Below, piece after piece: positions 1 through 56,083 of a stretch of 64,000 bases of DNA. Under the pieces are notes generated by a model. The model ran no database searches. It saw only the letters and a list, made by a program, of their open reading frames with translations, and was not told the origin of the DNA. The translations under genes and the position numbers were made by a program. Source of the DNA: a virus (Duplodnaviria > Heunggongvirae > Uroviricota > Caudoviricetes); the IMG/VR virus record IMGVR_UViG_3300027744_000008. The stretch is one strand, 5' to 3'. The stretch's first letter is position 1, and every line of letters begins with the position of its first letter.

Positions 1-75
1 ACATTGATCCTTCAACATCGTTGGTGGGAAATTGATGTCGAAGGTTATATTGGTTGGCTACTGTCTAAACGCTAA
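1..75 (+). CDS. 3' end of a fatty acid desaturase (truncated by window edge; not in ORF track)
   Basis: Frame +1 reads TLILQHRWWEIDVEGYIGWLLSKR* (TAA 73-75). This matches the C-terminal desaturase motif in 9941..10732 (RRWWELDPTYWLI) and 55376..56083 (KWWEFDIGWLYI). Confidence 0.65.
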   Translation, partial: TLILQHRWWEIDVEGYIGWLLSKR

Positions 76-477
76 TTAAAACTTTTTAAATTTATCCGGA
101 AATCTAGTCGTAAACTGATCAATTGGTAAAGAAACAGCGGAGTCAGGCAGGGCTAGCACCGGAGCATCCAGTGAACTCCAAAATTCTTTAAATTCTATGC
201 CTTGTTTTTTTATCGTTTGATAAAAATCTTGTCTATAAGGAACTACTATATCTTTAAACTCATCGAGCCATAACTCATAAAAGTTTTGATCGTGCCAGTC
301 AACAACGTATTCGACATAGGATGCATCATCAGATACATACTCGTTGATATAATCAACATAGGGATTACCCTCATATAAAAAACAATTAGATAAACTGTTA
401 AATGATTTAATATTCCAAATTATCTCTAAAATATCGCTGCCCGGTTTTTCATATGTTGTTACTGAACGAAATATCAT
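76..477 (-). CDS. small hypothetical protein, possible ABM/Dabb (dimeric alpha-beta barrel) fold
   Basis: 133-aa ORF with AGGAG SD and TAAATA upstream. VVDWHDQNFYELW resembles the ABM W-x-S/D-x-x-x-F pattern. Confidence 0.5.
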   Translation of the reverse strand: MIFRSVTTYEKPGSDILEIIWNIKSFNSLSNCFLYEGNPYVDYINEYVSDDASYVEYVVDWHDQNFYELWLDEFKDIVVPYRQDFYQTIKKQGIEFKEFWSSLDAPVLALPDSAVSLPIDQFTTRFPDKFKKF

Positions 478-502
478 TGTTACTCCTATTGTATGTTACT
501 AT

Positions 503-1057
503 TTACTCGTTATTATTGTCTTCTAATAAAAATTCAGGTGTGGGATTAGTACTTATGGTCAATGTAATTCTAGGTACTTTAGTTTCATCCATCTCTATGC
601 TATGTATTTCTAAGGGACGTATTATTGTAGGTTCTGTTATTTGTACTCGGTCAACACGTATAATGTTATTTGGATCATATGATTGATAAGGTTGCCCTTT
701 TTTATTTAACATTAGTTTAGGCTTGATACTTGAATCTTTTAGCACATAGAAATTAGTCCAACTATTTTCGCAATTGAGAATAGGGATATTGATCCTAGCA
801 GGGTCAGTATAAGAGTCTCGATGTGCATTACCGTCTGTGTTAGTAAGCATAAAATAAGCAGCGACCGTTTTAGGTGTTAGCCCGTGCTCAGTAAATGCAT
901 CCATGATCTCAGGAACTGCTTTTATAAAATCATCAAATTTGATTGGTTGGAATGATGACCCCAATGAAAACTGATCTTTATTATTTTTTATATATTCCAG
1001 AGATTTAGTTTGGATAATCTCTAGATTTTTAATTTTAATTTTTTTCCAATAATTCAT
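503..1057 (-). CDS. 2OG-Fe(II) oxygenase/cupin-like protein (paralog of 4637..5182)
   Basis: HRD...IHSI...PRITL (HxD...H...R). Shares RINIPILNC and PRITLTxST with 4637..5182. Start moved to the ATG at 1057 (MNYWKK), 7 nt after the ubiB stop. Confidence 0.65.
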   Translation of the reverse strand: MNYWKKIKIKNLEIIQTKSLEYIKNNKDQFSLGSSFQPIKFDDFIKAVPEIMDAFTEHGLTPKTVAAYFMLTNTDGNAHRDSYTDPARINIPILNCENSWTNFYVLKDSSIKPKLMLNKKGQPYQSYDPNNIIRVDRVQITEPTIIRPLEIHSIEMDETKVPRITLTISTNPTPEFLLEDNNNE

Positions 1058-1064
1058 TACATTC

Positions 1065-2360
1065 TCACTTGATAATCCATTTGGCAAAATTCTTTAATAT
1101 TATTGGTTTTATTTCTTCTTTTAGATCAATTGTAGGATCAATAGTTTTAGCCATGCCTTCTGCTGCTATTAATGTTTTGATTAATAAGGTAAACTGTACT
1201 GGAGTTTTAACTCCAAATTTTTCTCCTAAATTTAACAACCTACGTAGAGCAGTCATTACTGAGTTTTTGGAGTGACTTGCTATTACATTATCTAAATTAT
1301 GAAATGCTGCACTTAAGGCATTTTTATCAACATCGGCAGGAAACCATTCTGCATCAATTTGTACTTTGACAAATTGTTGATAATCCTGCTTGGACAATGC
1401 TGTCATTAATTTAATAATAGTATCTCGATCTTCCTTGGTAAGCACACCCATGATACCAAAATCTAAATATACTCTTGACCCGTCATCCATAATCCACACA
1501 TTTCCAGAATGTGGATCGGCATGAAAAAATCTATCTCTAAAAACTTGTAATAGTAGCAATTCTATTCCTTGCTTTGCAACTTGTTTCAAATTAACACCCT
1601 TGGCAGTTAACTCACTTATATGATCAATAGGTGTTCCGTACATACGTTCCATCACAAGAACATTTCTAGTACTCATCTCTTTGTAAATTTTTGGGATATA
1701 GACTCCATGATAATCTTTTAAATTCTCCCTAAACTTTTCTGCATTCTCGGCTTCTAATAAAAAATTTAATTCTTGTTTGATACTGACTTCTAATTCTTCT
1801 ACTACACCTAAAAAATTAAAATCTTTTAAACTACTTTTGAATAAATTCATCGTTGATATTAGATCTTTGAGTAATCGCAGATCAATCCTTATAATAGATT
1901 TTATACCTGGTCTTAGAATTTTAACTGCTACTTCATCGCCATTTGGTAGTACAGCCAAGTGTACTTGTGATATACTAGCAGATGCTACAGGTGTTGGTGA
2001 AAAATATGCAAAGATATCATCCACTTTGCCTTTTAATTCTTGTTCAACAATTGAGATAGCAATATCATTATCAAAAGGTTTTACATGATCTCTAAGTTTA
2101 ACTAATTCGTCGGCTATATCTGAAGGCAGCAAATCTCGTCTAGTAGAAATTATTTGGCCAAGTTTGACAAATACCGGTCCCAATTCTTCGAGAGCTTTTC
2201 TCAATCTGTAACCCGGAGGACCTTCTACAGGCTTGCCAAATAAAAATTGTCTAACAAAATTGCCTCCAACATTTAAAAATTTAGTCCGATCGTGCTTCGA
2301 TAAATATTCGTCAAGTCTATACTTGGCAATTACTTTTACTAAATCTATTATACGTAACAT
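1065..2360 (-). CDS. ubiB: UbiB/ABC1 (AarF/COQ8) family atypical kinase
   Basis: LEELGPVFVKLGQIISTRRDLLP, PVASASISQVH, VAVKILRP, FFHADPHSGN and YLDFG are the family motifs. Confidence 0.93.
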   Translation of the reverse strand: MLRIIDLVKVIAKYRLDEYLSKHDRTKFLNVGGNFVRQFLFGKPVEGPPGYRLRKALEELGPVFVKLGQIISTRRDLLPSDIADELVKLRDHVKPFDNDIAISIVEQELKGKVDDIFAYFSPTPVASASISQVHLAVLPNGDEVAVKILRPGIKSIIRIDLRLLKDLISTMNLFKSSLKDFNFLGVVEELEVSIKQELNFLLEAENAEKFRENLKDYHGVYIPKIYKEMSTRNVLVMERMYGTPIDHISELTAKGVNLKQVAKQGIELLLLQVFRDRFFHADPHSGNVWIMDDGSRVYLDFGIMGVLTKEDRDTIIKLMTALSKQDYQQFVKVQIDAEWFPADVDKNALSAAFHNLDNVIASHSKNSVMTALRRLLNLGEKFGVKTPVQFTLLIKTLIAAEGMAKTIDPTIDLKEEIKPIILKNFAKWIIK

Positions 2361-2381
2361 TTAAATTCTCAAAGGTAAATT

Positions 2382-3020
2382 ATGATTAATTTTAGACAGT
2401 TAGACATTGGTGATGCAGAATCGGCTATCGAACTTATTAATTCTCGTCCTGAAGTATTTATGGGAAAATTAGATGATGATTTTAAAAATGAAATAATAGA
2501 AGCTTTGCCATTGGTCTTAATGGATCCATTATGTTTTAACCTTGGGATTTTTAGAGACGACATACTGATCGGTTTTGGACTGTTTAAAGAAATGACAACA
2601 CAACCTGCATGGGTTTGGGGACACTGGGTCACCAAGCAAGGTGACCAAAAAAATCTTATAAGTTTAGAAATGTTGCGTCTAATTGATAAAATGATGGATA
2701 TACTATTTGAAGAAATGGAGAGCCGGGGACTACATCGATTTTATATTGCATATAAACATAACAGTGGAGACGAAACCGATTTACGATCAATGGGTGCATC
2801 TGACAGGCTATTTAAGTTTATGACTAGATATAAAAAAGGTCATCAGTATCAATACAATTTTAGAATGTCCGAGTACAAGTTCTTCATTGACTGTAAAGTA
2901 CCTGCAAATACCAAACCAAAATACGCTTACCAATACGCCATATTAGGAGATAGGCTATGGCCCTTTGATTTAGATATACATGTAGGTATATTAGATCAAT
3001 CTAAAGAAAGAGGCTCGTAA
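2382..3020 (+). CDS. hypothetical protein with GNAT-like N-terminal region
   Basis: INFRQLDIGDAESAIEL...NLGIFRDDILIGFGLF is the typical GNAT beta1-alpha1 / beta2-beta3 pattern. No acetyl-CoA motif A is clearly recognisable. Confidence 0.5.
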   Translation: MINFRQLDIGDAESAIELINSRPEVFMGKLDDDFKNEIIEALPLVLMDPLCFNLGIFRDDILIGFGLFKEMTTQPAWVWGHWVTKQGDQKNLISLEMLRLIDKMMDILFEEMESRGLHRFYIAYKHNSGDETDLRSMGASDRLFKFMTRYKKGHQYQYNFRMSEYKFFIDCKVPANTKPKYAYQYAILGDRLWPFDLDIHVGILDQSKERGS

Positions 3021-3337
3021 CTTTCGCCGGTATCACCATCTGTGATTATTAGTTTAAGATCGTGTTTAAATGCCTCCATTTCAAATCGAGTCCAAAACAT
3101 TCTTCGTAACGGATGTTTTGATGCTTCGTCAAATGCTTGTTTACTTTCCCAAACTGTAGTAATATCCCAGCGGGTTTTGTCATAGTAATCATCAATTGCT
3201 TCAATAAATCCAGGAGGTGGCGTTACATTATTTTTCTTCATAAGATTTGCAAAAGTATGACCTTGTGTAGTAACAATTTTGAATCGATCCATATTGGCAG
3301 GCCCTTCGCATATTAATTTATAATAACGCTTATACAT
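2996..3337 (-). CDS. ABM/Dabb-like small protein
   Basis: ITTVWESKQAFDEA matches the ABM WES.EAF motif. It has an AGGAG SD and its own TAAATA. Confidence 0.55.
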   Translation of the reverse strand: MYKRYYKLICEGPANMDRFKIVTTQGHTFANLMKKNNVTPPPGFIEAIDDYYDKTRWDITTVWESKQAFDEASKHPLRRMFWTRFEMEAFKHDLKLIITDGDTGESYEPLSLD

Positions 3338-3417
3338 AACTTCTCCTATATACAGTATTTAAATAAATTTCTAGACCTTAAAAAATTTATCATAAATATC
3401 TAACTTGAGGAACTAGT

Positions 3418-3756
3418 ATGTACGGAAGAACAGCAATTTTTAAAACTGTCAAACAAAACAACAGATTAACACTCACGGAATTTATTCATGGAATATCGTC
3501 AAATATGATGTACGATACTATGACTAATGAATTACTCGAAACTGTGGGATTCATAAGAAAAGATTTTCTAATAGTCGATGACAAAAACGGATGTATAGCA
3601 GTATCACGTATAATTTTTGAAGACGAAGAATATTTTAACAACTATCTCAGCAACGAGGTGTATGAAATGATTTGGGACTACCTTCAAGTTACTGCCGAAG
3701 GAATCGGCATTACAATAACATTTGAAGACGGCAAAATTGATTCATTATATGGATAA
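3418..3756 (+). CDS. small hypothetical protein, possible ABM/Dabb fold
   Basis: 112 aa with GAGGA SD. SRIIFEDEEYFNNY aligns by eye with the two other small proteins. Confidence 0.45.
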   Translation: MYGRTAIFKTVKQNNRLTLTEFIHGISSNMMYDTMTNELLETVGFIRKDFLIVDDKNGCIAVSRIIFEDEEYFNNYLSNEVYEMIWDYLQVTAEGIGITITFEDGKIDSLYG

Positions 3757-4636
3757 AGAATTAGTTAACCGTATAAGGTCTAACGCAAGATTAAACCAGT
3801 ACGATATTTCTAAAATGAATTCGAGCCATACTAAACTTGGCCCTACACATCATCATCATAGCGGTTTATTTTCTTCGAGTAGTTGGGTTAAGCCTGGACC
3901 GTTACCCGAAAGCTATGCCAAACGTATGATGGCATTAGGAGAAAAGTATCAAAATCTAAGATGGCTACCGTTGGATATTCCTGTTATTGATTTTGAACAT
4001 AAAGAAGAATTTTTAGAAATTTGGAATAAGGAAAAAATTGCTTTACTTCCCACTGACGGTTCTATAACTGATCCTGAATTTTATGGGATGCATATTCATA
4101 GTAATTGTTTACTGGACTTTCAATATCATGACACATATTCGCAAAATACGAATATGGAACATATCAGTAAAGAATCGGGTATGTTGCAAGGAAGGCTACC
4201 GATTGGTTTATACACTAAGAAATTATTCAGGCATAGATTCTTTTCTAGAATAATAGATCAAATACTTTGCACATATCCTATTAATTTATTGTCTAATATA
4301 ATGATATTAGAAACTGCAAGAAATGTAGCACCGCATCGAGAAGAAACATGGGTGTGGAAATGTCCCACTGAGCTACGGTCCTTGTTGTTTGAAAATAAAC
4401 CTAAAATTTATGTAGCAGATATAGAGCATGGTGATATCAACTACGTTAACATGCCCACCGATACAAATACAGTTTGTTGGTCAAATGGCACACAGATTTA
4501 CGGGATCGATTATAATAATGAGCCTAGTTTCCAATTAGTAGTAAATGCTGTTTGGGACTATAAAAAAATAGATCATCTTTTAGAAACAAGTATTTCTAAA
4601 TATAAATCAATATTAAATTATAAATTGGAAATTTAA
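3749..4636 (+). CDS. hypothetical protein, degenerate cupin/dioxygenase-like C-terminus
   Basis: VAPHRE (HxE) followed by a beta-rich segment. The ATG at 3749 overlaps the previous gene by 8 nt. Confidence 0.45.
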   Translation: MDKELVNRIRSNARLNQYDISKMNSSHTKLGPTHHHHSGLFSSSSWVKPGPLPESYAKRMMALGEKYQNLRWLPLDIPVIDFEHKEEFLEIWNKEKIALLPTDGSITDPEFYGMHIHSNCLLDFQYHDTYSQNTNMEHISKESGMLQGRLPIGLYTKKLFRHRFFSRIIDQILCTYPINLLSNIMILETARNVAPHREETWVWKCPTELRSLLFENKPKIYVADIEHGDINYVNMPTDTNTVCWSNGTQIYGIDYNNEPSFQLVVNAVWDYKKIDHLLETSISKYKSILNYKLEI

Positions 4637-5182
4637 ATGCAATACTGGAAAAGACTTGAGCTAGACAACTGGGAATTGATTGCAGAAAAAACTTTAGATT
4701 ACATAAAGAATCATACTACACTATTAGATCAAAGTACGTTCAAGGGTCCCTTCAACCCATTTGATACAGCACATTTTATTTCAGAAGTTCCGGAACTGGC
4801 TCAATCATTTGCAAAGCATGGATTACACTACGAAGCAGCCAATGTATATGTTATGTGGGCAAATGAACAAAGTTTTCCACACAAGGATTACACCGATTCG
4901 ATTGGAAGAATAAACATTCCCATATTGAATTGTGCCGGGTCATCGACTATATTTTACTCAAACTTGCAGGGAAGAAGAGTGGTACTACCAACCGGTGCAC
5001 CATTCTATATGACGATGAATAGAAAAAGTTTAATACAAGTCGGCAGCATAGAAATTAACCAACCAACCATTATACGTATATGTGAAGGTCACGATGTTAA
5101 TCTACCTAACAATATGCCCGTTCCTAGAATCACACTAACTGTAAGTACAGTTCCAGACTGTGGTCTACTACTTGACGATTAG
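4637..5182 (+). CDS. 2OG-Fe(II) oxygenase/cupin-like protein (paralog of 503..1057)
   Basis: FPHKD...RINIPILNC...GHDV...PRITLTVST. Confidence 0.65.
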   Translation: MQYWKRLELDNWELIAEKTLDYIKNHTTLLDQSTFKGPFNPFDTAHFISEVPELAQSFAKHGLHYEAANVYVMWANEQSFPHKDYTDSIGRINIPILNCAGSSTIFYSNLQGRRVVLPTGAPFYMTMNRKSLIQVGSIEINQPTIIRICEGHDVNLPNNMPVPRITLTVSTVPDCGLLLDD

Positions 5183-6348
5183 ACTGCTTCAATTACAGCA
5201 ATTGAAGTACGTCCGCCGAATCCAAAACTAGCCTTCATAAATGCTTTGCTATGTAACGATCGTTGCTCAGTAATAACTCGAGAGTCGTTTGTGAGTGGGT
5301 TTGTTAGCCCAACGTTGGGGTGAATAAATCCATTCTTCACAGCTTCAATTCCATAGACACTTTCTAGTGCGCCACATGCGCTCATTGTATGTCCAATATA
5401 TCCTTTGAAGGCAACTATCGGAATGTCTATATCTTCAAACTTTTTAGCAAATGCATCAAACTCAATATCGTCTCCAACAGGGGTACTAGTTGCATGTGCA
5501 TTAAAAAAGGAGATATCATCATAGGATAATCCCGACTGATTAACAGCGCGATCCATAAGAAGTCCTTGATGTTCCCCTGTTGGATCGTGAGCAGTGATAG
5601 TGTGTACTTTTGCTCCGGCAACTATTGATCTGATAACAGCCTTTGGTGTAAGATTACGCTCTCTAAGAGTTGCCTCATCGCACAAGTATAAAAGTGTACC
5701 GCCTTCACCTTGCAAAAATCCATCACGGCTTTTATCAAAAGGTCTGCAAATGCCGCCATCTGTCGTTGATATCGCACTGGTGCATTGCCAGTGATATTGA
5801 AAACTTGGCCATAGTGGTGATTCAACACCTCCTACTAGGGCAGCTCCAGTGTCCCCTGCTCTGATCATTAGATAGGCAAGATATAGATTAAACATGCTAC
5901 TGGAGCAGGCTGCGTTAAGACTAGCACTGAATCCCTCTAAATTCAATCTTTTAGAAAGCAATGAACTCAATAGATCATGATTTGCCATGAATAATCTAGT
6001 AGGGCTAAATCGCCTTTGATGACTATCAAATGCCCTTAAAAAATCATCTTTAATGGACGATCCCAGTGCCATAGCACTGACAAGGATTGCAGTATCCTTT
6101 GGTAACTCGTATTTGCCGGCAAGTTCATCAGCAAGATCAACTGCCATCTTAAATCCAATATTTTCTTTTGGATTAAATTCTATTGGCATTTGATATCCGT
6201 TAGTTGTTAATACTTGTGGATATTCACTAGTGTCATATCTAGTAATTGGCTGAGGACCTTTAGTCAACGGCATGTTAAGATAATTTGAGCTAGCATTAAC
6301 ACCTAGGCAGTCTCTTACTGCATAGTCAACTATGTAAACGTCTTTCAT
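5179..6348 (-). CDS. fabF: beta-ketoacyl-ACP synthase (FabF/FabB-type)
   Basis: Cys-His-His triad in NAACSSS, NAHATST and KGYIGHT. Also CRPFDKSRDGFLQGEGG and a C-terminal SFGFGGR. Confidence 0.92.
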   Translation of the reverse strand: MKDVYIVDYAVRDCLGVNASSNYLNMPLTKGPQPITRYDTSEYPQVLTTNGYQMPIEFNPKENIGFKMAVDLADELAGKYELPKDTAILVSAMALGSSIKDDFLRAFDSHQRRFSPTRLFMANHDLLSSLLSKRLNLEGFSASLNAACSSSMFNLYLAYLMIRAGDTGAALVGGVESPLWPSFQYHWQCTSAISTTDGGICRPFDKSRDGFLQGEGGTLLYLCDEATLRERNLTPKAVIRSIVAGAKVHTITAHDPTGEHQGLLMDRAVNQSGLSYDDISFFNAHATSTPVGDDIEFDAFAKKFEDIDIPIVAFKGYIGHTMSACGALESVYGIEAVKNGFIHPNVGLTNPLTNDSRVITEQRSLHSKAFMKASFGFGGRTSIAVIEAV

Positions 6349-6704
6349 TTTTTAATTTTAGATGGATCTTGACTGTCGGTGATATATCCGATTAGATCGC
6401 TCCATTGTAATAGTGTAGCGATTTCTTTGTCATCAATAACAACTCCGAACTCTTCTTCAATCTGGATGACTAATTCTAAAATGTCAATGCTGTCAACTTC
6501 ATAGTTCTTTTTAACTTGTGCTAACATGTCTGGACTTAGGTCTTTGAGTTGTTCTCTAACACTTTGGTCGCCGTGCAATTTTAGATCTTTGATTGATAGT
6601 GTCGGATCTAACGGATATTCTAAATCCATTTTAAGATAGTCATTGATCATCTCAATGAATTTTTTTTCTACTTGTTCTTTAGTTAACACGGGTTTTGAAT
6701 CCAT
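6345..6704 (-). CDS. acpP: acyl carrier protein with ~27-aa insertion
   Basis: DSIDILELVIQIEEEFGVVIDD (phosphopantetheine Ser). Its stop overlaps the fabF start (ATGA-type coupling). Confidence 0.85.
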   Translation of the reverse strand: MDSKPVLTKEQVEKKFIEMINDYLKMDLEYPLDPTLSIKDLKLHGDQSVREQLKDLSPDMLAQVKKNYEVDSIDILELVIQIEEEFGVVIDDKEIATLLQWSDLIGYITDSQDPSKIKK

Positions 6705-6721
6705 TTTATCTCCTGTTTATA

Positions 6722-7243
6722 CTATTTAATGTACTCATCGCCTTCCCAGGGTTTAATTTGATTGTCAAATTTATAGACTGCCTTGAGCCTGGAAACTGAT
6801 GCAACCACTTGATCGTCAACTGTAATATACGCCTCAAATTCGCATAAATTACGCTTATTCCTAAGTGTCTTAGCATGGATTATTAGTTGATCTCCGGGGT
6901 GAACAACCTTTTTAAATTTTACACTTTCTGCGCTAACGAATAAAACTCCAGACTCTTTGCCTGCTTCTTTAATAACTCTCTTGTTGTCATATATTGATTC
7001 TTTTTGTTTATAAATCAATATAGAGCTAGCTTGGGCCATGGCTTCCATTAGCATTACTCCGGGCATGATATGATAATGCGGAAAGTGCCCTTGAACATAT
7101 GGTTCATTTACTGTAAAATTTTTAACTGCCACTATGTAGCCACCAGGGTCAGCAGCATCATAATCAATGACCTTATCGACCATTAAGAATGGATACCTGT
7201 GTGGTAAAATATCTAAAACTTCTGTTGTATTCAAAGCATTCAT
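6722..7243 (-). CDS. fabZ: 3-hydroxyacyl-ACP dehydratase
   Basis: LPHRYPFLMVDKV, GHFP, MPGV..EAMAQ and VKFKKVVHPGDQL; catalytic His and Glu present. Confidence 0.93.
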   Translation of the reverse strand: MNALNTTEVLDILPHRYPFLMVDKVIDYDAADPGGYIVAVKNFTVNEPYVQGHFPHYHIMPGVMLMEAMAQASSILIYKQKESIYDNKRVIKEAGKESGVLFVSAESVKFKKVVHPGDQLIIHAKTLRNKRNLCEFEAYITVDDQVVASVSRLKAVYKFDNQIKPWEGDEYIK

Positions 7244-7249
7244 CGTAGT

Positions 7250-7278
7250 ATTATAATATAAAAAGATTAGTTAGTCAA
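7250..7278 (-). promoter_or_regulatory. sigma70-type promoter for fabZ-acpP-fabF (leaderless)
   Basis: Minus strand TTGACT (7278-7273), 17 nt, TATAAT (7255-7250). Predicted +1 is the A of the fabZ ATG (7243). Confidence 0.8.
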
Positions 7279-8160
7279 TGCGATCGAAGTTATACCGGCA
7301 GTCAATTTAGCCACAACTTCATGATACTGGTGATCGCTGGTTCCTAACCATTTGTCTTTAAAGGATACAACTCGTTGTATATCTGGATGATTAAAGATTG
7401 GACTTTTTTCTACTATCTCGTAGCCGTGTTGTTTTACACGTTGCTCTAGGTTGAAATCAGTCCCATTATTGAATACATATACCTTGCTACTGTTAGTTCC
7501 TAACTTTCCCGGAAAACCATGATTGGCTAATTTTTCCATAGTCGGGTCTATCAAAAAAGACAACATCTGTTCAGGAGTATAGCTCAACAAGAAAGGAGTT
7601 CCATGTATGCCTTTTAGTTTCCAAAAATTAAGTTGACTATGAATAATTTCTTCTTCGTCCAAATACCATTTGTTGTCTTTTGGATTTAGCTTCATGTGCG
7701 GCGGGTCGTTGCCAGTGATCACTGTGCCGTCTAATTGACTGGCCAGCCACATGTTAGAGGACAGTTGCCAAGCGGCACATTGTATACTTTCTGCTATTTC
7801 TAGCAGTTGGCCAGATTCAACAAACTTGTCGTAGTCTAAATCAATGACTGTAGGAGTGATATTTTTTGCGTCGCAGTACTTAAACGCATATTTGGTTTCG
7901 TGATCATTATATGCGGTACGCATAATAACAACTTCTACTTCCATGCCCATTGCAGTTAACACACTTAACACATACTCGCTGTCTAGGCCTCCGCTGTAAC
8001 ACAACTGTAATTTGCCTACTTTCTGCGACCAAATCATTTCACATGCCCGTTTAGTTTCTTGGTAGTAACTGCGTACAGGTTGTGTTGGCGGATCAATCTC
8101 AACACACCAAGTTGGTCCGTTTCCGTGACTTCTTAAATAATTATTGTGTATGAGTTGCAT
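7267..8160 (-). CDS. PP-loop (AANH / N-type ATP pyrophosphatase) family protein
   Basis: QLCYSGGLDSE PP-loop and later VITGNDPP. It lacks the QueC Cys cluster. Confidence 0.7.
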   Translation of the reverse strand: MQLIHNNYLRSHGNGPTWCVEIDPPTQPVRSYYQETKRACEMIWSQKVGKLQLCYSGGLDSEYVLSVLTAMGMEVEVVIMRTAYNDHETKYAFKYCDAKNITPTVIDLDYDKFVESGQLLEIAESIQCAAWQLSSNMWLASQLDGTVITGNDPPHMKLNPKDNKWYLDEEEIIHSQLNFWKLKGIHGTPFLLSYTPEQMLSFLIDPTMEKLANHGFPGKLGTNSSKVYVFNNGTDFNLEQRVKQHGYEIVEKSPIFNHPDIQRVVSFKDKWLGTSDHQYHEVVAKLTAGITSIALTN

Positions 8161-8980
8161 TGTCGATCCAATCTAAAAAATGAACTTTTTGTTTTTCTAA
8201 CATTTTCTTTGACACAGTTACCATAATGGACTCTGCCTGATGTTTATCTTGCTTCCATGCTGTTTCCCACATGCGTTCATTCATAGTCCATTGTTTGCTA
8301 CTACTACCTTGATCAACATATTTTTTAACTAGTACATCTGTCCCAGATTCTCTGGGAATTGATACAGTAACAAACATTGCACCTGGTTGCCATTCAATCA
8401 TAGTAAACGGATATACTGCAATCCATACTGCTGCATGTTGAGTACTAATTTCTTTTTTAGGAACTACAGATTGTATACTTCCCCAATCTTGATAATCCCA
8501 TATTACCTCTACATCGTCAGTAATACCAATTTCTTCGTAGACATCTTTATGTACGATAGGAATGTGATCCACATCTAAGAATACATTCATTATGTTTTTA
8601 TAGTGGGCGTTGACATAGTCAATACGAGTTTCTTTTAATGTGAACTGTCTAAGGTCAACCCCGATGTTAGTCAAGTCAACATCGACACTGAATACTAAGC
8701 CGTTTGAAATATACGTACTAGAATTAAACAAGGGCTTGTCATTTAGTATTTCAGTGCATCCACTACTACTTGGAGTTCCTTGCTGTGTCCAACTCCATCC
8801 GTGATATTGACATGAAATTTCTGTTGACGGTTTACTAAGGATTAAACTTCCTTGATGTGGACAAATATTATTATATAAACGAATCTCACCGTCAACATTG
8901 GACAAAAATTTCTTGTTATAACATTGGACTAGTGGTTGGGATACTCCCGAGTTGATATCTGAGGTATGGGCTAAAAACAT
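8141..8980 (-). CDS. Rieske non-heme iron oxygenase, alpha-subunit-like
   Basis: Rieske ligands CPHQG and CQYHGW; mononuclear iron site DVDHIPIVH...QDKHQAE. Start moved to MFLAH (8980). Confidence 0.88.
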   Translation of the reverse strand: MFLAHTSDINSGVSQPLVQCYNKKFLSNVDGEIRLYNNICPHQGSLILSKPSTEISCQYHGWSWTQQGTPSSSGCTEILNDKPLFNSSTYISNGLVFSVDVDLTNIGVDLRQFTLKETRIDYVNAHYKNIMNVFLDVDHIPIVHKDVYEEIGITDDVEVIWDYQDWGSIQSVVPKKEISTQHAAVWIAVYPFTMIEWQPGAMFVTVSIPRESGTDVLVKKYVDQGSSSKQWTMNERMWETAWKQDKHQAESIMVTVSKKMLEKQKVHFLDWIDNATHTQ

Positions 8981-9035
8981 AGAGTATTTAATATAGTTTA
9001 TTTCGATGCTAAAAGAAAGTGACTTAAATACATAC

Positions 9036-9401
9036 ATGATTCAAGGACACGGCATAGACATTGTGCAAATTACAAGATTCAACGAGATGGACTATCCTCG
9101 TTTGGAAAAATTAGCCAACCGAATTTTAACTGACACAGAACTTGCAATATTTACAGAACTTGTCTATAGTAAAAAAACACACTACGTTGCTAAAATTTGG
9201 GCAGCTAAAGAAGCTGTATCAAAGGCATTCGGAACTGGGATTCGCGGAGATGTTGTTTGGAAAAATATGCAAGTGCAAAATGACAAACTAGGATGTCCAA
9301 GAGTAGAATTTTTAAATGCTTTGATAGATCAAGGGCATTGTCACCTGAGTATAAGTCATCACGGCGATTCTTTAATAGCTTCTGCTATATTAGAGAAATA
9401 A
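9036..9401 (+). CDS. acpS: holo-ACP synthase (4'-phosphopantetheinyl transferase)
   Basis: GHGIDIV, WAAKEAVSKAFGTG, NDKLGCP and HLSISH. The ATG at 9036 is 5 nt after TAAATA. Confidence 0.93.
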   Translation: MIQGHGIDIVQITRFNEMDYPRLEKLANRILTDTELAIFTELVYSKKTHYVAKIWAAKEAVSKAFGTGIRGDVVWKNMQVQNDKLGCPRVEFLNALIDQGHCHLSISHHGDSLIASAILEK

Positions 9402-9944
9402 ATGACAGTTAAAGTTTGGACTCCTGGGAGTAACCCAGAACTCGATATTCTTTTTGACAAACTGAGAATTGCACAGTTTGAAAATCAAGAAGATCGTCTT
9501 TGGTACAACTATTCAGAGTCTGCATTTTTAGAGTGTGATGCTCTGTGCATCGCATTTGATGATCAAGGAAATCCACAGTTTTGTAGCAGTATTTTAAGCA
9601 GATCCTGTTGGCCTGATAATACCTATAGAGTGTTGAATAGATTGTGGAAAACTATACCCAAGATGCATTCTTTACATAAGGGTCCTGGTCTAAGTTTTTT
9701 AAACAGCATTGCTGCTCAGATTCAATGGTTAAAAGAAAATCGCGCCGCAGATCTTATTTTTGTTAGTAGAAAAAATAATAATTGGCAAAATATATTACTT
9801 GACAGTCTTGACCGCTACGGTATGCCCTTCAAAACTGACAAGTATAAATACCTTACATGCAGTGATATAAACGACGAAGATTGTTGGCAATATATTGCAT
9901 ACTGCGGTGATGAATCTAGATTACTACAATGGGAAAGAAGATGA
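9402..9944 (+). CDS. hypothetical protein (possible GNAT/acyltransferase-like fold)
   Basis: Translationally coupled between acpS and the desaturase. The fold guess comes only from the beta-strand pattern (ALCIAFDDQGNPQFCSSI...YRVLNRLW). Confidence 0.45.
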   Translation: MTVKVWTPGSNPELDILFDKLRIAQFENQEDRLWYNYSESAFLECDALCIAFDDQGNPQFCSSILSRSCWPDNTYRVLNRLWKTIPKMHSLHKGPGLSFLNSIAAQIQWLKENRAADLIFVSRKNNNWQNILLDSLDRYGMPFKTDKYKYLTCSDINDEDCWQYIAYCGDESRLLQWERR

Positions 9945-10732
9945 CAGAAATATTAAAAGGCATGGTTAGAATGTACAGCATTGTACCAATACAGTTGGTT
10001 GGACTGTACGCTGTCTATACTATTTTTGCAGGAACTACACCTAGTTGGTGGTGGATCACAGCATTAGTAGGATATGTGTGCATTATGATGTTAGGTGTCT
10101 GTGCTTGTTATCATAGGATGTTGAGCCACAAAAGCTTCGAAACAACACGCCCAATGAAAATTTTTATGCTATGGTGTTCTGCACTGTCGGGACAGGGCAG
10201 TCCTATATTCTGGGCAACTATACACAGAGGTTACCACCATCGCTACACAGATCAAAATCTTGACCCGCATAGTCCTATACACGGTTTCTGGCACAGTTAT
10301 ATCCTATGGATGTTTAAGATCAAAGACGGTGATCATAATACCAAATATGTTGTAGATCTACTTAGAGACAAGGATGTAATGTTTTTCCACAAATACTACA
10401 ATCATATATTTTTAATAAGCCATATTGCCGTTTTATTGATCAGTTTTGATTTATGGATGTATCTCATGATATTGCCAGCATTTATTACAATTCATAGTTT
10501 TTCTATTCAAAATAATCTTAACCATTCTAAAGTTTATGGATATAAAAACACTGACACCAAGAACAACGGTGTAAATGTTGCATGGCTGTTTCCGTTGATT
10601 CTAGGTGAAGCATGGCACAACAACCATCATGCAGATGCTAAAAATCCGCAGTTTGGTAGGCGGTGGTGGGAGTTAGATCCAACCTATTGGCTGATCAAAT
10701 TGATTAGAATCAAGAAGGATTCGATTCTTTAA
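9941..10732 (+). CDS. membrane fatty acid desaturase (delta-9/OLE1-like)
   Basis: His boxes YHRMLSH, HRGYHH and WHNNHH, with hydrophobic TM stretches. ATGA overlap with the upstream gene. Confidence 0.92.
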   Translation: MTEILKGMVRMYSIVPIQLVGLYAVYTIFAGTTPSWWWITALVGYVCIMMLGVCACYHRMLSHKSFETTRPMKIFMLWCSALSGQGSPIFWATIHRGYHHRYTDQNLDPHSPIHGFWHSYILWMFKIKDGDHNTKYVVDLLRDKDVMFFHKYYNHIFLISHIAVLLISFDLWMYLMILPAFITIHSFSIQNNLNHSKVYGYKNTDTKNNGVNVAWLFPLILGEAWHNNHHADAKNPQFGRRWWELDPTYWLIKLIRIKKDSIL

Positions 10733-10958
10733 GAAAGACAATACCGTCGTGTAGGTCTTTTAATGTCTTAGCATTAACAGTCATCGGATTATCCATGTCT
10801 ATCTCAATACCAAATTCATCTTCGCAGGCCACAATCAGTTCAGTGAGACTTAGACTGTCTAACCCAAGATCTTCTCTAAGATTAAAGTTTAAAGTTACAG
10901 CAGTTACTCCGCTATAATGTTCAGCGAGAGAAATAAGTTTTTGAGCAATATTATTCAT
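10710..10958 (-). CDS. acpP: acyl carrier protein (canonical size)
   Basis: LREDLGLDSLSLTELIVACEDEFGIEID. Confidence 0.88.
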   Translation of the reverse strand: MNNIAQKLISLAEHYSGVTAVTLNFNLREDLGLDSLSLTELIVACEDEFGIEIDMDNPMTVNAKTLKDLHDGIVFLKESNPS

Positions 10959-11013: not shown

Positions 11014-11184
11014 ATGAAAAAAGAATATCTAGTAGAGGAAATTTTTGAAGATATACCCGGTGACGAAGACAATGTCATAATGAAAATACCGCCAGAAATT
11101 CTTGAACAAATGGGATGGAACGAAGGTACAGTTTTAGACATAACATTAGAGGAAGGTGCAATCAGCATTAAGAAGCATGGCTAA
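11014..11184 (+). CDS. AbrB/MazE-like small protein, 56 aa (not in ORF track)
   Basis: [63 protein letters not shown]. IPxEI...GW..G..L.I....G.I.I is the SpoVT/AbrB pattern. Confidence 0.7.
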
Positions 11185-11398
11185 GAATTCAGAATTAATA
11201 GAGTTAATAGGCACAGTCACAGAGGTATTACCAAATTCTACATTTAGAGTTAAAGTAGAAAATATGGAACACATGTTAGTCTGCTACATTAGCGGAAAAC
11301 TCAAAAAACATAAAATTAAAGTGATCTTAGGAGATAATGTGAGATTAGAAGTTAGTCCATATGATCTAAGTAAAGGCAGGATAACATTTAGGTTGTAA
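11177..11398 (+). CDS. infA: translation initiation factor IF-1
   Basis: [29 protein letters not shown]...[37 protein letters not shown]. Confidence 0.93.
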
Positions 11399-14738: not shown

Positions 14739-15329
14739 ATGCCTAATTTAGTACCAATGGTCATTGAGACCGAAGCCCGTGGCGAACGTGCATATGACAT
14801 TTACAGTCGATTGCTCAAAGATCGTATTGTTATGTTGGACACGGATGTCAACGAACATTCAGCAAGTTTAATTGTAGCTCAACTTTTATTTTTAGAAAGT
14901 CAAGGAAATGAAGATATTCACTTTTTCATTAATAGCCCTGGCGGTGTTGTTACCGCTGGTATGGCTATCTATGATACAATGCAGTTCATCAGACCCGACA
15001 TATCGACCATCGTTATGGGACAGGCTTGCAGTATGGGTTCTCTTCTTGCCACTGCTGGCGCTGCTGGCAAACGGAAAATTCTACCTAACGCACGTCATAT
15101 GATTCATCAGCCAAGTGGTGGTGCTGGCGGACAGGCTACAGACATGGAAATCCAAGTTAAAGAGATTCTAAAAATGAAACAAAGTCTAACCCAAATTTAT
15201 GTCAAGCATAATAGCAAGGGCAAAACTTTTGAAGAGTTTCACGCAGGTATGGAACGAGATAATTTTATGAGTGCTCAAGAAGCTGTAGATTTTGGTTTGG
15301 CGGACGAGATTATAACAAAACGCCCATAA
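14739..15329 (+). CDS. clpP: ATP-dependent Clp protease proteolytic subunit
   Basis: [27 protein letters not shown] (Ser), MIHQP (His) and ERDNFMSA (Asp). Confidence 0.95.
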
Positions 15330-22562: not shown

Positions 22563-23638
22563 AAATATATTATTTGCGATGTTACAATCTAGAATTAACA
22601 GAAAATCTAGAATTAGTAGCCAACAGAATTATCGACAGCGACCCCGATAGGATAATAATTTGGTGTGCCCAAGAATATGCCTACTATGAAATATTTGATC
22701 AGTTGTTTGATCTATTAGAAAACTGGGCCACATCTAACAATAAATTAGTTCATTTGATCACCACTTGTAAATCTGGATATGTTAGGCCGTGGATTCTAGC
22801 AGAAGGCACCTACGGTATACTATATAATTTTATGTTTGCACACATGATGGGATTCCCTACTGACCCAAAAATATGCGATAAAAAATTCATATACCTTAAC
22901 AATAACAAAGCACCAAGTCAAATCAATCCCACTAAAATTTTTACTTGTTATAATCACACTGCACATGCCCAAAGAGGACTGCTGGTAGATCTATTGGCAA
23001 GAGACAATTTGATAAAATTAGGCATAGTGACCTTTCACTATCCCGAACAATATCAGTGGATTTATCATAATGGAACAAAACTTCTTGACGAATTAGATTT
23101 CAAATTAGATAACAATAAGTACTCACCCGATATGGTTCCACAAAGTCAAACTTCTGCTTTTATGGACGTAGTTACAGAATCTCGATATGATATCAATGAA
23201 TACTTTATTACAGAAAAAACATTAAAAAGTCTAATGTTGTATAGACCCTTTCTAGTGTTAAGCTGTCAAGGGTTTCACAAATACCTTGTTGACCGCCTTG
23301 GACTCAGATTATACGATGAACTATTTGACTACGGTTTTGATAATGAACCATCGATCAACAATCGCGTTGAAGGCATCATAAAAAACATTAAACATATAGA
23401 AAAAAGTTTTAGCAGTACTACACAGTTAAATGAAATGTATGATTCTATTAGACCAAAATTATTATATAACAGAAATAGAATAGAAGAAATATTTGTCAAC
23501 AAGGATTTAATTGTACCAAAATCACTTAAATTCTTAATGGAACAAGACAATATTACAATAGAAAATGCCGGGTATGCAGACCTACCTGATTATATGATAA
23601 AAATGGGTTGGTCTAATATAAAGTTAAATAATGTATGA
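22559..23638 (+). CDS. putative glycosyltransferase (GT10-like TEK motif)
   Basis: DVVTES...FITEKTLK...RPF...LYDELFDYGFD. Confidence 0.5.
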   Translation: MKIYYLRCYNLELTENLELVANRIIDSDPDRIIIWCAQEYAYYEIFDQLFDLLENWATSNNKLVHLITTCKSGYVRPWILAEGTYGILYNFMFAHMMGFPTDPKICDKKFIYLNNNKAPSQINPTKIFTCYNHTAHAQRGLLVDLLARDNLIKLGIVTFHYPEQYQWIYHNGTKLLDELDFKLDNNKYSPDMVPQSQTSAFMDVVTESRYDINEYFITEKTLKSLMLYRPFLVLSCQGFHKYLVDRLGLRLYDELFDYGFDNEPSINNRVEGIIKNIKHIEKSFSSTTQLNEMYDSIRPKLLYNRNRIEEIFVNKDLIVPKSLKFLMEQDNITIENAGYADLPDYMIKMGWSNIKLNNV

Positions 23639-25764
23639 CTCCTGAAGAAGCCAATGACAAACACCTAATGACTCTTAAAGCCATTGCAGAGTATGCTAAA
23701 CCTGCACAGCAAAAGAATCTTACTAGTGTACAAATAGACTATGCTATTAGAAAAACTAGATTAATGCTAGTGATACTGCCGCAATGGGCAGCAGAATTTC
23801 CGCCGTTTAATCTCTGTAGACTTAGCTCTGTTGTTAAAGAAGCAGGTTACGAAAGCCGTATCATTGATGCTAATATTAAAGGCTATCAATACTATAAGAA
23901 ACATGTAGAAGATAAGATAAATTTTAAACTATGGGATCCAACAACAATCTGGCGTTGGGTCGGTGACAACTATAATGATATACATTCGTTAATTGAACCA
24001 ATATTAAATGAATGTTTAGACTCTATTATAGAGTACAATCCTACTATAGTAGGATTCAGCATGTATCAAATGAATGAAGAGCCTACTAAATGGATGGCTC
24101 AAGAACTTAAAAAACGTATGCCTCACGTTAAAATAGCAGTAGGCGGACCCAATGTACAAAAAGGATATTTTGTTAAACAACCTTACTATGATTATGTAGT
24201 CAGCGGCGAAGGTGAGGAAGCCATCCTAACGATATTAGATGAGATTGAAAGCGGGTTAGCAGGCACTGATCAAAAGCATCTAAGTCAGCCGGAAGGACAG
24301 AGATTAAATCTTAACAACTTCCCCATGCCTGACTATGACACTATAGATTTTAATGAATATAAAATACCCAACGGCGTTACTACAGAATTAAGTAGAGGGT
24401 GCATTGCCAAGTGTACATTCTGCGAGGAAACCCATTTCTGGAAATATAGACAGAGACAGGCTATTGACGCACTAACTGAGGTGGAATACTTATACAACGA
24501 AAAAGGCACAACAGTCTTTTGGTTCATTGACAGTCTTGTAAACGGCAATCTAAAAGAACTTAGGGCATTTGCCAAGGGTGTTGTGGCCAAGGGACTTGAT
24601 ATCAAATGGACTGGATATGCTAGGCATGATGGTCGTATGGATGTAGAATACTTGAAAGATTTATATGCCAGTGGATGCATGATGTTGAACTACGGATCAG
24701 AAGCAGGCAGTCAAAATGTATTAGATAGCATGGCCAAAGGGGTCACTATTGCAGAGATGGAACAGAATTTTAGAGACGGTCATGCTATAGGAATCAAAGC
24801 AGCAACAAACTGGATTGTGGGATTTCCGACTGAAACATATCAAAACTATGCAGATACTATGACCATGTTATGGCGTGTTAGAGATATGAGCGTACATAAT
24901 ATGAGTACAGGTGTAGGATTTTTTAACGGCCCTGAAACTATTGTGGGACAAAATCCAGAAAAGTTTAATATCTCAGATCATAAATATTTAGGTTATTGGA
25001 TTAGTAAAGACTTTACTAAGGGCGGCAGTCATTTGCTCATGCGTGTAAAATGTATGAGTATCTTCCTTGATCAGATTATAGGCAACAGAGGTATTAACTA
25101 TCCTCACAGACCTGCATTGGCCAGAGATCATTACACGATAAAATATATCAAACCTGGTATAGAAAAGGATGTTAACTACGAACAATTTGATTACGATATA
25201 ATCAAAACTGATATTAATCCTTATGCCGACTCTTTAGTAAACGAGATATGGCCATTGCTAAGGATGCTATGGAAGACACGTGGCGGCTATACTGCTACTA
25301 TTAAATTTAGTCCCGAATTAGACGATACAGAGTTTGGTCGTCATTTCGGCACTGGTCTATACACTGCCGAATTTAAGTTTACTATCTTAGAAAGAGGTAA
25401 TTGGGCAGCTGATTTTAAATATAAATTTGTACAGAATGTTGAGCCGGATCAATATAGGACTGCTAATAGATGGGGTGCATTTTTTGCACAAGATTATAGT
25501 AAGATGGAGGGCAATCCTGCTGCCCGTGCAAGACAACTGGCCAAGCCCGCATGGGGCAAAGATGGGCGAGGCGAAGTGGAATTTAATCAGTTAATCGATG
25601 AAGAAAAAGAATTAAATCGCACAATTGATTTTGGTTTTAACTATGCTTGGAAAGACACAGGTGACTGGAGCGACTATAGGAAGTATGAGATTAGCATTCC
25701 AGGAGCAGATATTCCAAGAGTAGAGGAACACCCCTTAGTGTTCAAACCACTTATAAAACATTGA
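23635..25764 (+). CDS. cobalamin-binding radical SAM enzyme (class B-like)
   Basis: N-terminal B12-binding region (PPFNL...VGFS...IAVGGP...GEGE); SRGCIAKCTFCEE; IDSLVNG; YGSEAGSQNVLDSMAKG; WIVGFPTET. Confidence 0.85.
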   Translation: MTPEEANDKHLMTLKAIAEYAKPAQQKNLTSVQIDYAIRKTRLMLVILPQWAAEFPPFNLCRLSSVVKEAGYESRIIDANIKGYQYYKKHVEDKINFKLWDPTTIWRWVGDNYNDIHSLIEPILNECLDSIIEYNPTIVGFSMYQMNEEPTKWMAQELKKRMPHVKIAVGGPNVQKGYFVKQPYYDYVVSGEGEEAILTILDEIESGLAGTDQKHLSQPEGQRLNLNNFPMPDYDTIDFNEYKIPNGVTTELSRGCIAKCTFCEETHFWKYRQRQAIDALTEVEYLYNEKGTTVFWFIDSLVNGNLKELRAFAKGVVAKGLDIKWTGYARHDGRMDVEYLKDLYASGCMMLNYGSEAGSQNVLDSMAKGVTIAEMEQNFRDGHAIGIKAATNWIVGFPTETYQNYADTMTMLWRVRDMSVHNMSTGVGFFNGPETIVGQNPEKFNISDHKYLGYWISKDFTKGGSHLLMRVKCMSIFLDQIIGNRGINYPHRPALARDHYTIKYIKPGIEKDVNYEQFDYDIIKTDINPYADSLVNEIWPLLRMLWKTRGGYTATIKFSPELDDTEFGRHFGTGLYTAEFKFTILERGNWAADFKYKFVQNVEPDQYRTANRWGAFFAQDYSKMEGNPAARARQLAKPAWGKDGRGEVEFNQLIDEEKELNRTIDFGFNYAWKDTGDWSDYRKYEISIPGADIPRVEEHPLVFKPLIKH

Positions 25765-55375: not shown

Positions 55376-56083
55376 ATGACAGAAATCTTATTCACACTCA
55401 TAGCCACACACCTTACCATCATATGCGTTACCTTGTATCTACATCGCTGCCAAGCACATAGAGGTGTAGAATTCCATCCTGCGTTAGCACATGCTATGCG
55501 ATTCTGGTTGTGGCTGACCACAGGCATGACCACTAAAGCATGGGTTGCAATACATCGCAAACATCACGCATTTACAGAAAAACCCGAAGATCCTCATAGC
55601 CCGCAGATCCACGGAATACTAACTGTACTGTTTAAAGGTGCATTTTTATATGCACAAGCAGCAAAAGATGAAAAAATGGTCAACTCGTACGGTGTAGGTA
55701 CACCCAGCGATTGGCTAGAACAACGAGTTTATACTCCCTACCCCTGGTTAGGAATTCTCCTAATGTTGATCATAGATCTTTTATTATTTGGTCCTACCGG
55801 GTTTTTAATGTGGGGAGTTCAAATGCTATGGATCCCATTCTGGGCTGCGGGTGTAATCAACGGCCTAGCACATTGGTGGGGATATCGCAATGGAGAAACT
55901 AGGGATACCAGCCGTAATCTAGTACCTTGGGCTATTATCGTAGGCGGAGAAGAACTGCATAATAATCATCACCTTAATCCTGCTAGCCCTAAACTTAGCA
56001 TAAAATGGTGGGAATTTGACATAGGATGGCTTTATATTAGAATGTTTACCCTGCTAGGATTAGCAAAATCCAAAATCAACTAA
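55376..56083 (+). CDS. acyl-CoA/acyl-lipid desaturase (DesA-like)
   Basis: YLHRCQAH, IHRKHH and LHNNHH His boxes; WAAGVINGLAHWWGYRN; WWEFDIGW. Confidence 0.92.
   Translation: MTEILFTLIATHLTIICVTLYLHRCQAHRGVEFHPALAHAMRFWLWLTTGMTTKAWVAIHRKHHAFTEKPEDPHSPQIHGILTVLFKGAFLYAQAAKDEKMVNSYGVGTPSDWLEQRVYTPYPWLGILLMLIIDLLLFGPTGFLMWGVQMLWIPFWAAGVINGLAHWWGYRNGETRDTSRNLVPWAIIVGGEELHNNHHLNPASPKLSIKWWEFDIGWLYIRMFTLLGLAKSKIN

Follow-up and report, generated by a model that had tools for sequence, protein, structure and literature searches.

A type II fatty acid synthase-like gene island in a lineage of large phages and a candidate pathway for tailoring acyl chains

We analysed a 64,000-nt stretch of the IMG/VR virus record IMGVR_UViG_3300027744_000008 (hereafter the window), positions 1–10958 of which hold a gene island that encodes carrier proteins, enzymes related to fatty acid synthases (FAS), desaturases, oxygenases and several proteins from uncatalogued families. 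An earlier note, made from the sequence alone, had interpreted this region as an acyl-tailoring cluster, and this interpretation is partly supported by the results described here. The gene inventory was based on a listing of open reading frames (ORFs) together with Pfam and NCBIfam scans, and proteins without a family name were designated by their ORF lengths in amino acids (u133, u180, u212 and so on). A tight run of minus-strand genes, extending from 8980 down to 5179, encodes a Rieske non-heme iron oxygenase of the alpha-subunit type (8141–8980), a PP-loop ATP pyrophosphatase (7267–8160), a FabZ-type 3-hydroxyacyl-acyl carrier protein (ACP) dehydratase (6722–7243), the carrier protein ACP1 (6345–6704) and a FabF-like beta-ketoacyl-ACP synthase (KS; 5179–6348). 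Two gene pairs in this run overlap, Rieske/PP-loop by 20 bases and ACP1/KS by 4 bases, and the remaining intervals measure 17 and 23 bases. Lying on the plus strand and divergent from the run are the genes for an AcpS-type 4'-phosphopantetheinyl transferase (9036–9401), the GNAT-fold (GCN5-related N-acetyltransferase) protein u180 (9402–9944) and membrane desaturase A (9929–10732), the last of which is convergent with the gene for a second, canonical small carrier protein, ACP2 (10710–10958, minus strand). On the other side, u112 (3418–3756), u304 (3722–4636, with a likely start at Met10, position 3749) and u181 (4637–5182) lie on the plus strand and are convergent on the KS; to their left are u113 (2996–3337, minus), u212 (2382–3020, plus), a UbiB/ABC1 atypical kinase (1065–2360, minus), u194 (503–1087, minus) and u133 (76–477, minus).

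The left edge of the window interrupts the island. Positions 1–72 (plus strand) comprise the last 24 codons of desaturase B, which match at 100% the C-terminus of a 254-aa desaturase in L032, a near-identical contig with 6 mismatches in the 10,477 bases that it shares with the window. Thus, of the two desaturases that had been proposed here, A is complete and the gene of the second continues upstream. In L032 and two further contigs (L033 and L034), the region immediately upstream of the window contained a tandem pair of FA_desaturase genes (254 and 252 aa) with all histidine boxes intact, followed by a metallophosphoesterase gene, small ORFs and a gene for a 905-aa propeller/cytochrome protein. 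The island therefore extends ~1.8 kb past the left edge, giving a total of ~12.7 kb and ~21 genes.

Both domains of a ketosynthase were present in the KS (PF00109, 72 bits; PF02801, 77 bits), and Cys148, His285 and His320 were invariant among 20 relatives. The protein scored 165.7 bits against the FabF equivalog model TIGR03150, below the cutoff of 493.75, and its closest PDB relatives were enzymes of the beta-ketoacyl-ACP synthase II (KAS II) type; as judged from these matches, it is a FabF-like enzyme and not a FabF ortholog. The dehydratase exceeded the cutoff of NF000582 (151 vs. 113 bits) and fell slightly short of that of TIGR01750 (145.3 vs. 155.15 bits), with His53 and Glu67 invariant across relatives. 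The AcpS-type transferase scored 85.1 bits against TIGR00516 (cutoff 59.8) with D18, E69 and K73 invariant, and its conservation began at Met11, base 9036. ACP1 (25.2 bits) and ACP2 (37.1 bits) both matched PF00550 (cutoff 20.8), and the serine within the DS(I/L) motif was invariant in each (Ser72 of the DSI in ACP1, as was its helix II, and Ser35 of the DSL in ACP2). Both carrier proteins are thus predicted phosphopantetheine acceptors, and ACP1 is atypical in having ~35 additional residues ahead of the serine.

Desaturase A scored 59.2 bits against PF00487 (cutoff 29.7) and contained three histidine boxes of the Delta9/SCD (stearoyl-CoA desaturase) type, the eight histidines of which were invariant over 18 desaturase paralogs. 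The Rieske protein matched PF00355 (35.1 bits, cutoff 20.3) and remained under the cutoff for the catalytic domain PF00848 (21.4 vs. 24.9 bits). Its ligands C40/H42/C57/H60 (CxH...CxxH) and D136/H139/H144 (DxxHxxxxH) were invariant, and its PDB profile matches were alpha subunits of ring-hydroxylating dioxygenases, SxtT/SxtDIOX and CntA. In the PP-loop protein, the SGGxDS motif (S56-G-G-x-D60-S61) was invariant, and this protein was the most conserved of the island, exhibiting 71–77% identity where the KS showed 54–58%. All PP-loop family models scored below their cutoffs (e.g., QueC, 17.2 vs. 22 bits). There were at least 580 relatives of this protein, none with an informative name (hypothetical protein in JGI) and one with a PF00733 Asn_synthase domain; its best PDB match was an NH3-dependent NAD synthetase (E = 1e-3). 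The likeness to NAD synthetase and the one relative with PF00733 point to carboxylate adenylation. The UbiB kinase scored 257 bits against PF03109 and 427 bits against TIGR01982, under the equivalog cutoff of 488. Across the KS, FabZ, AcpS, both carrier proteins, the Rieske and PP-loop proteins and the desaturases, catalytic residues stayed invariant over an identity range of 30–77%. Overall, the Pfam and NCBIfam matches together with these invariant residues confirmed the identities that the earlier note had given to the KS, the two ACPs, FabZ, AcpS, the Rieske and PP-loop proteins, UbiB and the desaturase. NCBIfam matches to the cispentacin proteins AmcF, AmcB and AmcE were weak, far under their cutoffs, and were rejected as family assignments. 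Separately, a fourth membrane desaturase was observed far from the island (55376–56083, plus strand; 235 aa; PF00487, 58 bits; three histidine boxes), flanked by a Laminin_G_3/lectin-type protein and tail-fibre-like genes.

In IMG/VR, relatives of the island were found by an alignment-based search; a search with a single-sequence pattern returned just one unrelated KS. Ten related loci from independent assemblies were compared, in contexts that included nine IMG/VR contigs (up to 365 kb), a 271-kb JGI contig and a 290-kb ENA contig. The core order FabZ-ACP1-KS-u304-u112-u113-u212 was kept in every one of the ten loci, and the same island order was found on contigs of 271, 290 and 365 kb. AcpS, u180, the PP-loop protein and at least one desaturase were each present in 9 of the 10 loci, ACP2 and the u181 family in 7, homologs of u133 in 6, UbiB in 5, and the Rieske protein in 5 plus the 271-kb contig. 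Some relatives' islands additionally carried a short-chain dehydrogenase/reductase (SDR), a radical S-adenosylmethionine (SAM) enzyme or an FkbM methyltransferase. The island was flanked in relatives by the same phage genes, encoding DNA ligase, ClpP, a metallophosphoesterase and IF-1. The KS clade comprised ~98 clusters (49–98% identity, 387–394 aa), all metagenomic and confined to phage-like contigs, with the next drop to 34% identity. No member of it occurred in 185,579 species genomes of bacteria and archaea (best match 31% identity), and megablast and tblastn searches of 50,697 deposited phage records returned no relative; tblastn matches in those records, of ≤31% identity, were rejected as host FabF or FabB in contaminated or prophage records. 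Other phage KS families had none of the island's partner genes in common. The island is therefore genuine phage DNA and not a host chimera, and the co-conservation in all ten loci speaks against both possibilities that had been raised against the initial interpretation, namely a lack of co-conservation in related phages and a chimeric contig.

Several further features were observed around the island. At 11014–11398 (plus strand) of the window, an AbrB/MazE-like 56-aa ORF overlaps the phage IF-1 gene, and this pair was kept beside ACP2 in most related loci. Proteins with DUF2828 and DUF7788 lay beside the island in several relatives (L007:15301–16710, L008:5060–6508 and L006:16116–17024). In three contigs, a radical SAM protein of 486–526 aa was encoded between the KS and u304 (L005:11157–12617, L012:11157–12737 and the 271-kb JGI contig); its SAM domain occupied the C-terminal half, and it was 24% identical to a 709-aa protein of the window (23635–25764).

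Given that KS, FabZ, ACP and AcpS all belong to type II FAS families, these could be ordinary auxiliary genes by which the phage tops up host type II FAS and tunes membrane fluidity in cold lakes, with the neighbouring genes unrelated to this function. The Delta9/SCD-type histidine boxes and the position of the fourth desaturase, remote from the island, are consistent with such a role. However, the KS was at most 31% identical to any cellular KS and reached 166 of the 494 bits required of a FabF equivalog, and ACP1 is of an atypical form. The island also does not supply the pacemaking or missing steps (FabD, FabG, FabI, FabH and Acc): homologs of SDR, FabD and FabI were found neither in the window nor in the 6 kb upstream of it, which agrees with the reported absence of FabD, FabG and FabI here, although some relatives have an SDR. 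Moreover, the FAS-like genes occurred in fixed order with genes for PP-loop, GNAT-like and oxygenase-fold proteins in 9–10 of the 10 loci. We thus consider an explanation by ordinary auxiliary genes unlikely.

Contigs from four lake RNA libraries tiled the island at ≥99% identity. This provides a weak hint that the island is expressed, weak because RNA libraries can contain DNA, and such contigs give no strand, ends or level of expression. In three RNA libraries, a contig aligned over only 25 bases to the left and right of a 131-base skip in clpP (15099–15279) and beyond that was unlike the window; it most likely comes from the conserved clpP of another organism and not from a processed transcript. 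A near-consensus TTGACT-17-TATAAT was present at 7250–7278 (minus strand), within the PP-loop gene at its 3' end and just upstream of fabZ. A scan for sigma-70 promoters and terminators returned 42 sites relative to 49.8 expected, which is not above chance, and thus no promoter is claimed.

Two GNAT-like ORFs had been proposed in the island, and they differed in how well this assignment held. For u180, the predicted structure (AlphaFold2) was a confident GNAT fold (predicted local distance difference test score, pLDDT, 92), with structural matches at a Foldseek E of 3e-5 and VIA-align Z of 10–11.4. For u212, which was part of the core in all ten loci, the four best PDB profile matches were all GNATs, albeit weak ones (best E = 0.0066), and u212 is a probable GNAT-like acyltransferase. 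The u180 family included 245 representative relatives, and none of those tested, distant ones included, had a Pfam family; the u212 family was seen only in this phage clade. Domains resembling u180 and u212 were fused in the metagenomic protein P0342 (L115:973–2133; hhalign probability 83%, E = 8e-6, 179 columns) and, more weakly, in P0315 (probability 38%, E = 3e-4, 129 columns), both encoded on short metagenomic contigs. The P0315 gene overlaps a desaturase gene that follows it, and a 181-aa ORF comes next. These fusions and the adjoining desaturase suggest a functional link among u180, u212 and the desaturase. When read by eye, the conserved columns of the u180 and u212 alignments lacked the Q/RxxGxG/A motif that binds the pyrophosphate of acyl-coenzyme A (CoA), which fits, without proving, a donor other than CoA. 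A predicted complex of u180 with ACP1 scored 0.01, which is uninformative in either direction.

The top structural matches of u180 included acyl-homoserine lactone (AHL) synthases (LasI, TofI, RpaI and five LuxI-type proteins of Swiss-Prot) and FeeM, tied with general GNATs. Given these matches, the product of the island could be a small molecule that diffuses out and affects other cells, for example a signal resembling an AHL, an antibiotic of the polyyne type or an N-acyl amino acid. An ACP together with several membrane desaturases forms the core of alkyne/polyyne cassettes, and the island resembles that core. On the other hand, the AHL synthase matches were within a Z of 1 of generic GNATs, neither u180 nor its tested relatives matched Pfam Autoind_synth or Acetyltransf_5, and there was no fatty acyl-AMP ligase, thioesterase or exporter. 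A diffusible product accordingly appears quite improbable to us. Paired or fused GNAT architecture is also known from N-myristoyltransferase and the Fem transferases, and the u180/u212 arrangement recalls it. The acyl chain might be attached to a macromolecule of the phage or the host, either a virion protein, which would become lipidated, or an amino sugar, which would be N-acylated in a manner comparable to the action of NodA with the NodF/NodE product. The radical SAM gene of relatives, through its resemblance to the B12-type 709-aa enzyme of the window, could be counted in favour of this. The island does not adjoin structural genes, however, and no acceptor was identified, and we consider attachment to a macromolecule very unlikely.

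The proposal of two or three enzymes resembling 2-oxoglutarate (2OG)/Fe(II) oxygenases held for u304 by fold and for u181 and u194 by motif. The predicted structure of u304 (AlphaFold2; pLDDT 75, core >85) was a double-stranded beta-helix, and its top 50 PDB matches were all 2OG oxygenases (Foldseek PDB E = 6e-6; VIA Z 8.4–9.2). In Swiss-Prot, the top model was OlsC, an acyl hydroxylase of ornithine lipids, which tied with enzymes of the AlkB type and with prolyl hydroxylases. An Atlas search by protein language model linked u304 to clusters resembling PF05118 (Asp/Asn-hydroxylase-like) and gave a weak PF05118 lead for u181. The u304 family consisted of two subfamilies, of which B, found in relatives, contained PHRD...IHG...R/K. 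Subfamily A was the sole u304 copy in this phage, the subfamily B copy having been lost, and it lacked the full iron triad, with His205-x-Glu207, Tyr260 in place of the distal histidine and no basic residue after Tyr260. The paralogs u181 and u194 contained a complete HxD...H...R motif that was invariant among 10 sequences (H82, D84, H152 and R164 in u181), making both candidate 2OG/Fe(II) oxygenases; hhalign gave no link between u181 and u304. The block from 3418 to 5182 that contains u304 and u181 was inverted with respect to relatives (e.g., L002:11130–13419), and L032 and L033 were arranged like the window.

Support for the further claim of three ABM/Dabb-like proteins was weak. The small core proteins u112 and u113 were distant paralogs (hhalign probability 76%, E = 2.2e-5) with sub-threshold hints of this family, but u133, a conserved small protein, had no relation to either that hhalign could detect. 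Among loci, u113 was 52–64% identical and matched Pfam ABM at E = 0.066 (13.8 bits, cutoff 23.1), and the best PDB match of u112 was a 113-aa 'oxygenase' (E = 0.35). Searches of Pfam (E up to 10), PHROGs and NCBIfam returned no match for u133, u194, u181, u304 or u180, and PDB profile searches returned nothing for u304, u180, u181 or u113.

From these observations, we infer, with about even confidence, that the island is a lineage-specific, phage-private pathway that builds and tailors a fatty acyl chain on carrier proteins, as opposed to a set of borrowed host FAS genes. The atypical ACP1 and the retention of a dedicated AcpS support such a private pathway. Its steps are all drawn from homology. 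The AcpS-type transferase would load phosphopantetheine onto both phage carrier proteins, and the FabF-like KS and FabZ would lengthen an acyl chain on ACP1, with malonyl loading and the reductions borrowed from the host or, in some relatives, the latter perhaps from the island SDR. Double bonds would be introduced by the three Delta9-type desaturases of the island and oxygen by the Rieske enzyme and by u181 and u194, the candidate oxygenases with the HxD...H...R motif. The PP-loop enzyme may spend ATP on adenylating a carboxylate, for amide formation or for loading of an acid, and the u180/u212 pair may take the acyl group off the carrier protein and transfer it to an amine. As the product, we tentatively suggest an unsaturated or hydroxylated N-acyl (amide-linked) lipid in the envelope of the infected cell.

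Several observations weigh against a private acyl-chain pathway of this kind. FabD, FabG, FabI and a thioesterase are missing, and elongation would therefore require that a divergent ACP be accepted by the host. The assignment of u212 as a GNAT, which is probable, comes from an E of 0.0066 plus the fusions. A tyrosine at the distal histidine position and the absence of a basic 2OG-binding residue indicate that the subfamily A u304 might lack canonical enzyme activity. Four components (the Rieske protein, UbiB, ACP2 and u181) were accessory, occurring in 5–7 of the 10 loci, such that part of the chemistry would be optional, and the contigs from RNA libraries may derive from DNA, as described above. 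Finally, lone desaturases are known auxiliary genes of cyanophages, where they presumably act on host membrane lipids, and the Delta9-type desaturases of the island could simply do the same.

The auxiliary genes of phages that concern lipids have so far mostly encoded one enzyme each, for instance a desaturase. In the island, ~20 genes, among them those for a private KS, FabZ, two ACPs and AcpS, stayed together across a lineage of 270–365 kb phages. It is possible, though we hold this only tentatively, that this giant freshwater phage lineage has the first virus-borne assembly line for lipids on carrier proteins, one that employs families unnamed in databases (u180/u212, the PP-loop protein and u112/u113) and yields a phage-specific unsaturated or oxidised N-acyl lipid that remodels the envelope of the infected cell. 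If so, phages can carry complete specialised-lipid pathways, and infected lake cells would hold lipids predicted by neither host genomes nor lipid databases. The island also gives an acyl-carrier context to families of 'hypothetical proteins', namely the at least 580 PP-loop relatives and the 245 representative relatives of u180. Since all of the parts are small soluble or membrane proteins, the proposed pathway is testable in E. coli.

No account of this cluster emerged from literature searches. Closest to it was a 2026 paper on jumbophages of Flavobacterium, in which a 'Host-interface island' contains duplicated ACPs (PMC13573597). Compared by description and not by sequence, that island may be the same as the one analysed here, although no gene for a KS, FabZ, desaturase or PP-loop protein is mentioned there.

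Among known systems, NodF/NodE of rhizobia provide a dedicated ACP and a KAS II-like KS that rely on housekeeping type II FAS for the remaining steps, and the special unsaturated chain is then moved to an amine by the N-acyltransferase NodA, as we propose for the island. In contrast to NodF/NodE, the island is phage-borne and has in addition FabZ, AcpS, a second ACP, three desaturases, the PP-loop protein, and Rieske and 2OG-type oxygenases, while its putative transferases are GNAT-like and not of the NodA family. The alkyne/polyyne cassettes (JamA/JamB/JamC; cay, pgn) tightly link a carrier protein to one or more membrane di-iron desaturases, which would work on the chain that it carries, and in the island ACP2 similarly adjoins desaturase A, with two more desaturases in tandem. 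Unlike these cassettes, the island ORFs include no ANL-family acyl-AMP ligase or thioesterase, with a PP-loop ATPase instead, and they add the KS, FabZ and GNAT-like proteins. Aryl-polyene (Ape) clusters need a pair of KS and chain length factor (CLF), a ketoreductase and ApeI/ApeP, whereas the window has one KS, no CLF and no reductase, and the island dehydratase scores as FabZ, with ApeI/ApeP appearing just as overlapping clan matches on relatives. The analogy to aryl-polyene and polyyne clusters that the earlier note had drawn was therefore not upheld, as the KS/CLF pair, ketoreductase, fatty acyl-AMP ligase and thioesterase are all lacking. Tailoring of ornithine lipids and lipid A (OlsB; OlsC/LpxO) likewise combines a GNAT-related N-acyltransferase that uses acyl-ACP with a 2OG oxygenase of the Asp/Asn-hydroxylase family, but there was no Pfam match to PF05118 or to the OlsB family, and the Ols pathways do not depend on a private KS, FabZ or ACP. 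By analogy, the island thus appears functionally closest to NodF/NodE/NodA and to the ACP-desaturase alkyne cassettes, with an OlsB/OlsC-like flavour, and is a member of none of them. Overall, we regard it as a specialised-lipid cluster of the type II FAS-like kind that is unexpected in that a phage carries it, and that is built partly from uncatalogued protein families.

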